Made by a program: the position numbers. A stretch of DNA of 64,000 nucleotides. Source: a virus. Taxonomy: Duplodnaviria; Heunggongvirae; Uroviricota; Caudoviricetes. The first letter of the stretch is position 1. Each line of letters begins with the position of its first letter. The stretch lies in IMG/VR virus record IMGVR_UViG_646311923_000012; one strand, written 5' to 3'. Below are positions 42,001 to 45,000 of the stretch, piece after piece.

Positions 42001-45000
42001 TGAACACCCCGGCGGGCGGTTCATTCGACTGGGTGGTCGTATACACCACAAACCCTTCCGGACGGGAGGCAAGCCCGCCGATGGCTTCACGTAGCATGTC
42101 TTCCGCCTTGTACTGCTTGCCAAACAGCCACAGTTCATCAATCAGTGTCCCCACGGACTTGATACCGGACACCGTATTCGGATCGGCTGCCACCACCTTC
42201 AGGGTGGTGTCCGTCACCCGATGGGTGATGGTCCGGATATGGGTCTGCACCTGACAGAGGTCATCCAGATCATCGTCCCGTCGTACCATATCCCTGGCAG
42301 GGTTGAAGGCGTTAGCCGCCACCTCCACGGTCGGGGCCAGAATGGTGTAGCCCGCCGCCTGCCGCCAGTTCAGTAACAGCGCCGTCATCATGATCCCCGC
42401 AGCCAGCGTGGACTTCGAGTTTTTCTTGGGGATAAGGATAAACACTTCCTTGATATGGCGAACACCGGTCTGCGCATCGTAGGAGCCAAACAGGGCCGCC
42501 ACCAGGTCAAACACCCACGGTGCACAGGACTCCCCGAATGTCGGGCTACCCGGTGCATCCACAATTCGCAGTTGTTTAAAAATCGCCAGTGCATGTGCAG
42601 CCTGGTCCGGATAAATCGGAGCCGGAATAATCGACAGCCCCTTTTTCAGGCGCTCTGCCCAGTCCGGGCAGGCCGTGCTCCACACAGGTATCATCCGTTG
42701 CCCTCATTATCATTATTCACCACCAGGCGGGGTGGTGGTGGCACCGCAAAACGGTTAGCCGCTTTTTTCGCCGCGTCACCTTTTGCCGATTTTTTACCGG
42801 CATCCCCTTTTTTATGGTGCGTGAACTGCGCCAGCTTATAAGCCGCATCCAGCGCCAGCCTGGGGTCGGTATTAATGTTCTCCACCAGAAGACGCCCCAT
42901 CGCTTTCACCGGATCGGGAAGACCATCCTCCATATATTCAATACCAGGAGACATCACCGCGGACGGTGGCATCTCCGGATTGTTTTCGTCCGGCTGTGGT
43001 ATTGCAGCCGCCTCACGGCGACGGGGTTTATCCTCCTGCTCTGATTTTTTCTGCCGGTAAACAGGAACCTCATCCACCTCCACCGTCTCGCATTGTTTAC
43101 GGGCTATAAACGCAAGCACCTCCGGATCTTTTGCCAGCTGCGAGCCTTTAACCCTGGCGGTCTTCGCCGAATAACCAGCGGCAATGGCTGACGCTGTTTT
43201 GTTTTTCCCGGACATGAGCGCCAGCGCAAATTTTCGTTTTTGCGTTGTCAGCACAGCCTCCTCCCGGGTCCAGAACGCACTCAGCCGGGTATGGTTCAGC
43301 CCATTTTTCCCGGCGTCTCATGCCGCAAATGTTAACTGCTGCCTGGTTAACATTTGCTGAAAAAGCCAGTTAACATTTTTTCCGCACAACAAACTGAATA
43401 ATAAAGATAAAAACCGCAAAAATGCCCGGACAGCCAGTTAACATGTTAACTGCCCTGAAACGGGAATTTTTTCTCTGCGTGAGAGGGGGGGCGGTGTCCG
43501 GGGCGATCGTTTTTTTCGCCGGATGATCCCCCCCCGGGGCGGGTCACAGTCCGATGATATCGTCTGCCCTGCCATGACCTCCGGACACCTCCGGCAGCGT
43601 CGGGTCTGGCATACCACTCGCCGCTTCACGAGCAGACTTTTGTCGATGGCATTCGGTACAGAGCGTCCAGAGATTCGTCTCCTCATTACCACCACCGAAC
43701 TGAAGTGCAATTCGGTGATCGAGTTCACTGTCACAGAGGTCAACCACACGACCACAGAGACAGCACTGCCCGGCATCCCTGAGCCAGATATGACGCTTGA
43801 GGGAAACACGTGCACTGCCACTGACACGACGCTGTTCACCCTTCAGAATATTCACCCGCCGGGTGTTCAGAGTTTTGATTCTGCCCGGTAACGTACGAAG
43901 CACAGCCATGTAAAATCCTCGCCATATAGCTTGTCACCAGAGGAAAGAAAATGTCATCGAAAAACCGGCCCCGCAGAACAACAACCCGCAACATCCGATT
44001 TCCAAACCAGATGATTGAACAAATTAACATCGCTCTTGACCAGAAAGGTTCAGAAAATTTTTCAGCGTGGGTTATTGAAGCCTGCAGAAGAAGATTAATT
44101 AATGAAAAATATTCTCAATTTGTACCCAACAAAGACAAACACGACCAGAGAACCTGTTCAGACAGGTTTACTTAAACGACTTATATATGACACAAAAAGC
44201 GACCACTAAAGTCGCTTTTTCTTATGGTAACAGGCAATAACGCTCTCAGATATTTTTTAGCATTTTTTTGACCGCGCGTTTCCGGACGTATTCTGTTCTC
44301 CTGTCCCTTTATATCGTCGGAATACCCGCCGCTCTTCAAATCCCATTCCCAACTCAGAATGTAGTCTGTTGACCGCTTGTTTTATTTCGGTCAGGTTCAC
44401 CGGTGAAACCGGAGTCCGGCGCGCCTTACGCAAACACTCTGCTCGTTTCTGTGCCGCCACTTTTCTTTTCTGGTCATCACTTAGCTGTACCATCACTTTT
44501 GCCCATCGTTCAGCTGCTCTCCGGTACAGTCCTTTTTTCTCCAGACATTCTGCCAGGTGATCATGTAGCATAAGTAACCTCCGTTTATCTACAGACTGCC
44601 ATCCTGAATTTACCGTCCTTAATAAGACAACAATAAAAAACTAATTATATAAAAACAATAAAAATAATATACAAAAAAACTAAACAACAAAGAAAAGCAA
44701 ATCATATCTGGCATTTTAATTGAAAGAGCAATTACCGAACAAAAGACGCTGACTATATACTCAAAACCAAACAACAATTCTGCCAATCAGGTATCATGGC
44801 AACACACGGAATTACCATGTTTTTGCCTTCTCTGCCCATACAATACGGGCATATACTTCATACTCTATTGTAATATTTCTATCCATGCGCCCCACTCCAT
44901 TTACCTGTAAATAATATTCAAAATATTTATCACAGAAATCGTTTTTGGCCATGAACTGAGCACACTATAAAGTCCGGAACTGACTCTTTGTTAAATTACC

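Follow-up and report, generated by a model that had tools for sequence, protein, structure and literature searches.

A candidate cos site with a five-copy repeat array between the HNH endonuclease and small terminase genes of a lambdoid prophage

Genes, cohesive end and repeats at the locus

The viral sequence analysed here (64,000 nt of IMG/VR record IMGVR_UViG_646311923_000012, Caudoviricetes; hereafter the window) contains a lambdoid prophage whose late genes lie on the minus strand in the order lysis (~45-47.3 kb), antirepressor-like gene, perC-like gene, divergent DUF3950 gene, HNH endonuclease gene, a gap, the small terminase gene terS, the large terminase gene terL and a prohead protease/capsid gene. 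The gap (43255-43543, 289 bp) is the subject of this work. It contains five GTTAAC repeats, and an initial annotation had proposed it as the region recognised and cleaved by the terminase, a proposal that the analysis supports, for cleavage through the mapped ends of a sister phage and for TerS recognition through indirect evidence from the repeats. The following genes flank the gap:

41033-42694, minus strand: terL, large terminase, 553 aa, with the Pfam domains TerL_ATPase and TerL_nuclease
42691-43254, minus strand: terS, small terminase, 187 aa, GTG start behind GGGAGGAGG; Terminase_2 (PF03592)
43544-43909, minus strand: HNH endonuclease gene, 121 aa; Pfam HNH (PF01844), 29.7 bits against a cut-off of 21.4

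The HNH gene was correctly placed beside the terminase genes by the initial annotation, the order on one strand being HNH-terS-terL. It stands directly upstream of cos in the late operon, and this gene order is kept in all relatives. TerL matches the HK97 large terminase (PDB 6z6d) over residues 84-534 (phmmer, E = 9.9e-10) and is by this homology of the HK97 type. In TerS, the Terminase_2 domain covers residues 2-57 (35.8 bits against a Pfam cut-off of 26.1), and AlphaFold models residues 1-56 with a predicted local distance difference test score (pLDDT) above 90. The best PDB folds for this domain are the DNA-binding domain of SF6 G1P (4zc3; TMt 0.84, root-mean-square deviation 1.6 Å), 2cmp and 3zqq, followed by the small terminases of PaP3 and NV1, with Foldseek E-values that are weak (0.02) because the domain is small. 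By these matches TerS is an SF6/SPP1-type protein whose N-terminus forms a helix-turn-helix DNA-binding domain. The likeness to HK97-like phages noted previously thus holds for TerL and for the HNH-terS-terL order, but not for TerS. The HNH protein shares 24% identity with HK97 gp74 (E = 0.1), and we infer, on synteny alone, that it is a packaging accessory nuclease that would stimulate cos cleavage.

The gap itself is truly non-coding, being overlapped only by mechanically called open reading frames that spill over from the neighbouring genes; the region had been drawn earlier as 43325-43909, a span that includes the entire HNH gene. A search for a promoter or terminator on the coding strand of the gap gave none (no sigma-70 promoter occurs there), and the sole promoter-like match in the gap lies on the plus strand, antisense to the late genes, and is formed by the repeats themselves.

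The position of the cut is known from a sister phage. Zhang et al. (PMC7946995) induced the Stx1 (Shiga toxin 1) phage Lys8385Vzw and obtained with PhageTerm a 3' cohesive end of 10 nt, CGCCCCCCCT; this end is all that the published work gives for the site. The record of this phage (MT225100) ends in ...GGACACCGCCCCCCCT, closing with the 10-mer, and starts with CTCACGCAGAGAAAAAATTCCCG (first letters CTCACGCAG). In blastn alignments with the window, which show 98.2% identity over the left 2.5 kb without gaps and 93.1% over the right 610 bp, the last base of MT225100 falls on 43484 and its first base on 43483, which places the cut of the packaged strand between these two positions. The cohesive end therefore corresponds to 43484-43493, a location shown by proxy, since it was measured on Lys8385Vzw and transferred by alignment. 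Virion ends mapping elsewhere had been named in advance as the refutation of a cos site, and those of this near-identical phage lie inside the G-run, which favours it. Of the G-run/C-run palindromic sequence described by the initial annotation, both runs are present (G7 at 43485-43491; C8 at 43528-43535, followed by GGGG), but the G-run (43484-43493) is the cohesive end itself and not merely a neighbouring palindrome. Read from the HNH side, the gap contains the following elements, with offsets counted from the cut:

43528-43535, minus strand: G8 run in the packaging direction (C8 on the plus strand), 44 nt from the cut; present in all relatives examined, satellite-like loci included
43484-43493, minus strand: cosN, 10-nt 3' cohesive end, CGCCCCCCCT in packaging orientation and AGGGGGGGCG on the plus strand; from PhageTerm and the record termini of Lys8385Vzw
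43465-43472, minus strand: A-tract AAAAAATT, +12 to +19; invariant across all TerS types
43435-43452, no strand: P1, perfect 18-bp palindrome CAGTTAACATGTTAACTG, +32 to +49; two inverted units overlapping by 2 bp (sites 4 and 5)
43377-43434, no strand: A/T-rich spacer with T-tracts, 58 bp; length and T-tract character kept in extended-type relatives, with little sequence identity
43369-43376, minus strand: S3, single unit ATGTTAAC (site 3), +108 to +115; position conserved, sequence co-varying with the other copies
43325-43357, no strand: S2-N9-S1 inverted repeat GCAAATGTTAAC-CAGGCAGCA-GTTAACATTTGC (sites 2 and 1), +127 to +159

A direct count of positions confirmed the five GTTAAC copies within about 120 bp reported initially: they start at 43331, 43346, 43369, 43437 and 43445 and span exactly 120 bp (43331-43450). 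No simulation came close to this density, the maximum per 120-bp span being three in 100 first-order Markov simulations of the window, and a Poisson scan estimate puts the chance of such a cluster at ~5e-5. The repeat is longer than six bases. Four of the five sites match the 10-mer ATGTTAACTG exactly, and the basic unit, ATGTTAAC, usually followed by TG, occurs in both orientations. Besides the palindrome formed by sites 4 and 5, there is a 12-bp inverted repeat made up of sites 1 and 2, whose arms (43325-43336 and 43346-43357) are separated by 9 bp. The array as a whole lies 32-155 bp from the cut on the terS side, which is the position of a cosB element.

GTTAAC is frequent in the window as a whole, with 27 copies against 11.4 ± 3.1 expected from shuffles, and it remains at about twice the expectation when the cos cluster is set aside (22 against 11.4). 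Further close pairs occur at 11974/11982 (11974-11987), 55755/55776 (55755-55781) and 17943-17989, and GTTAACTGGTTAAC upstream of dicB has the 8-bp spacing of sites 4 and 5. Exact copies of ATGTTAACTG are also found outside cos at 2979-2988 (plus strand) and 57129-57138 (minus strand); these and the first two pairs lie in unrelated early-region contexts. Positions 57117-57136 read AACCAGGCAGTTAACAT, which resembles the S2-S1 spacer plus S1, by chance or possibly as a trace of recombination.

Among the remaining elements, the G8 run may be a cosQ-like or nuclease-docking element. In several prophages of the PPompW family, an IS110-family insertion sequence (ISEc20) is inserted exactly within the G/C-run by cos (LC567822.1; L199 2875-4333; ~43528-43535 of the window), with tRNA genes and Q beyond the insertion, so that these prophages lack the HNH gene and the lysis genes. 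The family seems to be defective in packaging and lysis, and the homopolymer run may be a preferred insertion target. The A/T-rich spacer is possibly a bendable segment by analogy with lambda, and no match to the integration host factor (IHF) consensus WATCAANNNNTTR with at most one mismatch was found in the window or in seven relatives, the best manual match having two mismatches.

Relatives with extended, compact and satellite-like layouts

The cos region is 96-100% identical in Stx1 and Stx2 phages and prophages including BP-4795, 1717, 2851, YYZ-2008, phi330, the Stx1a/Stx2c series and Lys8385Vzw, and the five GTTAAC are kept in all copies read through (MT225100 and loci from IMG/VR, NCBI and Logan). 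For comparison with more distant relatives, terS loci were gathered from GTDB genomes, IMG/VR, NCBI/Logan contigs and one metagenome, and two layouts were seen. The extended layout is that of the window, its E. coli relatives and the IMG/VR contig L179. Its elements, in order from the cut, are the A-tract, then P1 at a fixed offset, ~58 bp of A/T-rich spacer, S3, the S2/S1 pair with its 9-bp spacer, and ~75-100 bp leading to terS. An 8-N9-8 element with a CAGCR spacer is shared by the extended types with the exception of L179, where two single copies replace S2/S1 at ~20 bp from terS. The offsets of the copies from the cut are conserved among these loci while the word changes, as follows:

Window, L107 and L114: P1 GTTAACATGTTAAC; other copies ATGTTAACTGG and ATGTTAAC-CAGGCAGCA-GTTAACAT
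L109 (TerS 67% identical to that of the window): P1 with the GTTAAC core but with GGTG...CACC in place of the CAG...CTG flanks; this change of flanks is seen at all copies
L110, L111 and L201 (TerS 76% identical to that of the window): P1 TATAAACATGTTTATA; other copies ATGTTTATACC and ATGTTTAC-AGGGCAGCG-GTAAACAT; GTTAAC nowhere
L179: P1 TATGTACATGTACATA; two further ATGTACAT copies

The motif is thus switched to TAAACAT in L110, L111 and L201 or to TGTACAT in L179 in every copy together, GTTAAC being just one lineage-specific version of the repeat. In each relative, the motif is also the most repeated 7-mer of the array in a de novo word count, a level reached by none of 300 shuffles. Between the window and L109, 0 of 38 motif bases differ, against 55 of 119 (46%) non-motif bases (p = 3.6e-9); between L110 and L201 the corresponding values are 0 of 38 and 15 of 109 (p = 0.009). 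Taken together, these comparisons show that the repeat copies are selected cis-sites, with purifying selection acting on the copies only. All relatives have a homologue of P1 at this offset, switched in sequence together with the other copies, and P1 is proposed as the primary TerS site. From the position of the repeats, their selection and their co-variation, we infer that they would be bound by TerS. Pattern scans for more motif variants in IMG/VR and in metagenomes yielded one locus each.

The compact layout occurs in Salmonella phage FSL SP-016 and among prophages from Enterobacter, Kluyvera, Serratia, Erwinia, Pantoea and others; their TerS proteins share 37-49% identity with that of the window. 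In these loci, the distance from the HNH stop codon to the terS ATG is only ~110-170 bp, and DNA conservation is strong over the final ~110 bp, which extend from the G-run up to the ATG (GGGGGGGG...GGACACCGCGCCCCCTCTCACGCACAGAAAAAATTCCCCTCTGGAGGGTGTAAACATGTTAAC). Here P1 overlaps the start of terS, so that ATG-TTA-AC encodes Met-Leu-Thr, and 73 of 74 unique loci have TTA. S2-N9-S1 falls within terS at codons ~68-76, where AAT GTT TAY ACC CCA GCR GTA AAC encodes NVYTPAVN in 63 of 78 unique compact terS genes. The codons AAT, GTT, ACC, CCA, GTA and AAC show no synonymous variation at all (54-70 sequences per codon), whereas Val, Pro, Arg and Thr codons flanking the element use three to four synonyms, a pattern that points directly to selection acting on the DNA and not on the protein. 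The NVYTPAVN segment lies in the disordered TerS linker of the compact relatives (L118-L197, L006-L021), and the peptide appears to be dictated by the embedded DNA inverted repeat. Since the consensus ATGTTWAY-NNNN-CAGCR-GTWAAC is common to this in-gene element and to the window, the comparison shows S2-N9-S1 to be an old element. A copy of GTAAACAT also occurs upstream of the cut in about a third of the unique compact loci (27 of 74), and in those loci the sites may flank cosN. No isolated compact-type phages with mapped ends were found in the phage collection, apart from the partial FSL SP-016 record.

Two E. coli contigs, L105 (1-2889) and L112 (1-2874), are satellite-like and encode a TerS with a divergent N-terminus (MAMTARKRRFADA...). 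L105 contains a primase-like gene, a Terminase_2 terS and a capsid-like gene, and L112 an AlpA gene and terS. The G-run, the cosN core and the A-tract are retained in the two contigs, whereas the repeats are replaced by AAGTTACAC (GTTACAC type), with two copies in L105 and at least four in L112. Across the layouts compared, the elements on the nuclease side thus stay constant, and the repeats follow the type of TerS. The arrangement suggests satellites that use the nuclease of a helper with a private recognition site.

Comparison with known packaging systems and alternative explanations

The cut site and its nuclease resemble those of HK97. In both phages the HNH gene lies directly upstream of cos and terS-terL directly downstream, the large terminases are homologous and the 3' overhangs are 10 nt long. 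In HK97 a G9 run lies 42 nt from the right end, compared to the G8 run 44 nt from the cut in the window; the HK97 right end reads ...GACCGCCGCCAAA against ...CACCGCCCCCCCT here, with ACCGCC at the cut in both; and a T-tract lies within 30 bp downstream, where the window has the A-tract at +12 to +19. HK97 gp74, an HNH protein, stimulates terminase cleavage at cos according to work cited in PMC11331095, and the HK97 TerS (gp1) recognises a single 15-bp site at +15 to +29, with the DNA threaded through its ring (PMC11331095). In contrast, the TerS of the window is a Terminase_2 protein unrelated in sequence to gp1, which has no Pfam match, and one 15-bp site in HK97 stands against a five-copy candidate array reaching out to +155, in addition to the low identity of the HNH proteins.

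Because TerS is an SF6/SPP1-type helix-turn-helix protein and is not HK97-like, recognition probably resembles that of lambda cosB or SPP1 pac and not that of HK97. Phage lambda lacks an HNH protein and has a true IHF site, a TerS of the gpNu1 family and a 5' overhang of 12 nt. Its cosB has the order R3-I1-R2-R1 and lies between cosN and Nu1 (Feiss and Catalano literature). The five selected, co-varying repeats at +32 to +155 likewise lie between the cut and terS, in mixed orientation and interrupted by a spacer that may bend, and the proposed binder is in both cases a small terminase with an N-terminal helix-turn-helix. The window differs from lambda in its 10-nt 3' end, its Terminase_2 TerS, the lack of an IHF consensus, the absence of sequence similarity and the presence of two palindromic pairs among its sites. 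SPP1 and SF6 use headful (pac) packaging with imprecise cuts and have no HNH partner; in the SPP1 pac site, TerS binds the pacL and pacR boxes, and pacR lies within SPP1 gene 1. These phages share with the window the Terminase_2 family and the fold of the DNA-binding domain (4zc3, 2cmp, 3zqq), as well as repeated short boxes, part of which the compact relatives hold inside terS like pacR in SPP1. They differ from it in the precise cos cut, the near-identical phage having defined cohesive ends and not headful termini.

The site is accordingly a cos with cosN and cosB parts, in which an HK97-type nuclease core is combined with an SF6-type TerS. We consider it likely that 43255-43543 is the cos site of the BP-4795/1717/2851-type lambdoid prophage, at which TerL aided by the HNH protein cuts cosN and TerS docks on the five-copy array as cosB. 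As the ends measured on the sister phage show, the terminase nicks concatemeric DNA in a staggered manner, at points 10 nt apart within the C7/G7 run (43484-43493); this leaves the 3' overhang, with the terS-side end becoming the left genome end. By homology with HK97, cutting would be carried out by the HK97-type TerL with the help of the adjacent HNH protein. A TerS oligomer would dock through its helix-turn-helix domains on the five copies of the 8-10-bp unit (ATGTTAAC, usually with TG), whose architecture (the P1 pair, the 58-bp A/T-rich spacer, the S3 single and the S2/S1 pair) would take the role of lambda cosB. The palindromic pairs would suit two neighbouring helix-turn-helix domains acting in a dimer-like manner, as has been proposed for PaP3 TerS (PMC7672466). 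TerS on the array would position TerL and the HNH protein on cosN and mark the end that enters the capsid first, and packaging would then run into terS-terL and onward, with the direction and the bending of the spacer assumed by analogy with lambda. The G8 run and the A-tract are conserved with every type of TerS and are more likely to act in the nuclease or termination step than in specificity.

Several points weigh against this interpretation. Both TerS binding and terminase cleavage are deduced for this prophage by comparison, and the cut position comes from the near-identical Lys8385Vzw and not from virions of the prophage itself; a PhageTerm call within a homopolymer run could also be off by one or two bases. 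The alignments behind the selection test were partly anchored on the motifs themselves. With no IHF consensus in the spacer, the lambda-like bending step is unsupported. A covariation between TerS residue 33 (Thr/Ser) and motif position 3 (T/A), promising in six lineages, failed when 80 more loci were included, and an ENSARS-type TerS was found with ATTAAC, which breaks the correlation. Finally, in HK97, which is the sole relative of the nuclease module with a solved structure, the TerS site at +15 to +29 includes an A-tract, and by analogy the A-tract of the window could be the true TerS site.

The last point leads to an alternative in which TerS reads the A-tract as in HK97, while the repeats bind a host nucleoid protein or a phage regulator for terS expression or nucleoprotein structure and play no part in packaging specificity. 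It draws on the HK97 minimal site (PMC11331095), on the invariance of AAAAAATT in all relatives and on the overlap of the compact P1 with the terS start codon and Shine-Dalgarno sequence, which would suit an operator for translational or transcriptional control. The same invariance, however, means that the A-tract cannot carry specificity, since it is unchanged between TerS types, satellite-like ones included, whereas the repeats do change. In addition, HK97 gp1 belongs to a different family, no sigma-70 promoter lies on the coding strand, and the only nearby DNA-binding candidate, the ribbon-helix-helix protein DUF3950, was rejected as the repeat binder, as it shows no co-variation with the motif and some repeat-bearing loci lack it. 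We regard this alternative as unlikely.

Still less probable, in our assessment, is that the inverted repeats act as RNA hairpins in the late mRNA upstream of terS, controlling its translation, processing or stability. The 12-bp S2/S1 stem is present in the minimum-free-energy fold, and both arms change jointly in relatives (TTAAC/GTTAA to TTTAC/GTAAA) with pairing kept, but the fold of the region is unexceptional (z = -0.97; 35 of 200 shuffles fold as well) and has no Rfam match. A hairpin requires complementarity only and leaves unexplained why P1, the unpaired S3 and the inverted repeat share an 8-mer and switch jointly, as well as the conserved CAGCR spacer and the fixed offsets from the cut. 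It is very improbable that the repeats are non-functional relics, that is, decayed copies of an ancestral terS 5' end (ATG-TTA-AC) produced by duplication or recombination, even though ATGTTAAC is the terS start (M-L-T) in nearly all unique compact loci and homology between the window and the compact relatives extends across ATGTTAAC before it breaks off. When the window array is aligned collinearly with the compact terS 5' end, the score exceeds shuffles for some partners (z = 3.7 and 3.3) but not for others (z = 1.4, -0.2 and -0.5). Relics would decay like their surroundings, whereas the copies are perfectly kept amid heavily diverged neighbouring bases, occur in both orientations and are switched in concert. 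An origin as relics is compatible with a present function as binding sites, and the repeats may well have arisen in this way, but the pattern of selection shows that they have a function today.

Neighbouring genes, prevalence and biological meaning

Public annotation of terS is inconsistent. One start has been placed 45 nt upstream at a CTG (L003 185-793; MT225100), and the terS annotation of proteins P0022, P0056 and P0076 is affected, several proteins being frameshift fusions that begin with MRRREKWAEPYPAEC, a stretch from the out-of-frame open reading frame 43148-43321. A better start is the GTG at 43254, which follows GGGAGGAGG. Just upstream of the HNH gene, a YlcI-like DUF3950 gene (43951-44175, plus strand), whose product looks like a ribbon-helix-helix protein, opposes the late operon, and it is adjoined by a homologue of the PerC family of activators (44257-44571, minus strand); neither has an obvious role in packaging. 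Another lambdoid prophage adjoins the one studied here, and its early region takes up positions 1-16300 of the window (Q, rusA, hokD, genes for replication, repressor region, dicB and exonuclease), with its integrase at ~15270-16290. The type III effector gene espK (17100-18470), which follows, lies at the distal end of the prophage studied here.

Of 5426 complete E. coli genomes, 1243 carry this cos type, in up to seven copies each, and many Shiga-toxin phages have it. Earlier publications cover the cohesive end and the partnership of HNH protein and terminase. The repeat array, the concerted variants and the version inside terS were not found described in the searchable literature, which excludes most subscription journals. 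Small-terminase DNA reading has so far been structurally solved only for the unrelated HK97 TerS, and the relatives described here offer naturally varied pairs of TerS and site with which DNA reading by helix-turn-helix small terminases can be studied. The mapped ends also give correct genome termini for annotation.

A tentative extension of these results, possible rather than probable, is that the arrays define packaging-specificity groups among co-resident lambdoid prophages and their satellites, comparable to immunity groups. TerS and array would then co-evolve by concerted switching around a constant nuclease core, and the array, which lies inside terS in the compact relatives and in a dedicated upstream region in the E. 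coli lineage, appears to have moved. The versions observed are GTTAAC, TAAAC, TGTAC and the satellite-like GTTACAC, and the constant part comprises the G-run, cosN, the A-tract, TerL and the HNH protein. If this is true, up to seven related prophages in one enterohaemorrhagic E. coli genome, plus satellites, could share or avoid each other's packaging machinery. The cohesive-end sequence itself differs among close relatives (CGCCCCCCCT, CGCGCCCCCT, CGCGCCCCGT and CGCGCCCCCC), and prophages with a common recognition array may therefore yield ends that do not anneal mutually. The cut site and the likely array tell which prophages, satellites and plasmids can be packaged by which terminase, and such packaging compatibility matters for lateral transduction and for how stx and effector genes spread.

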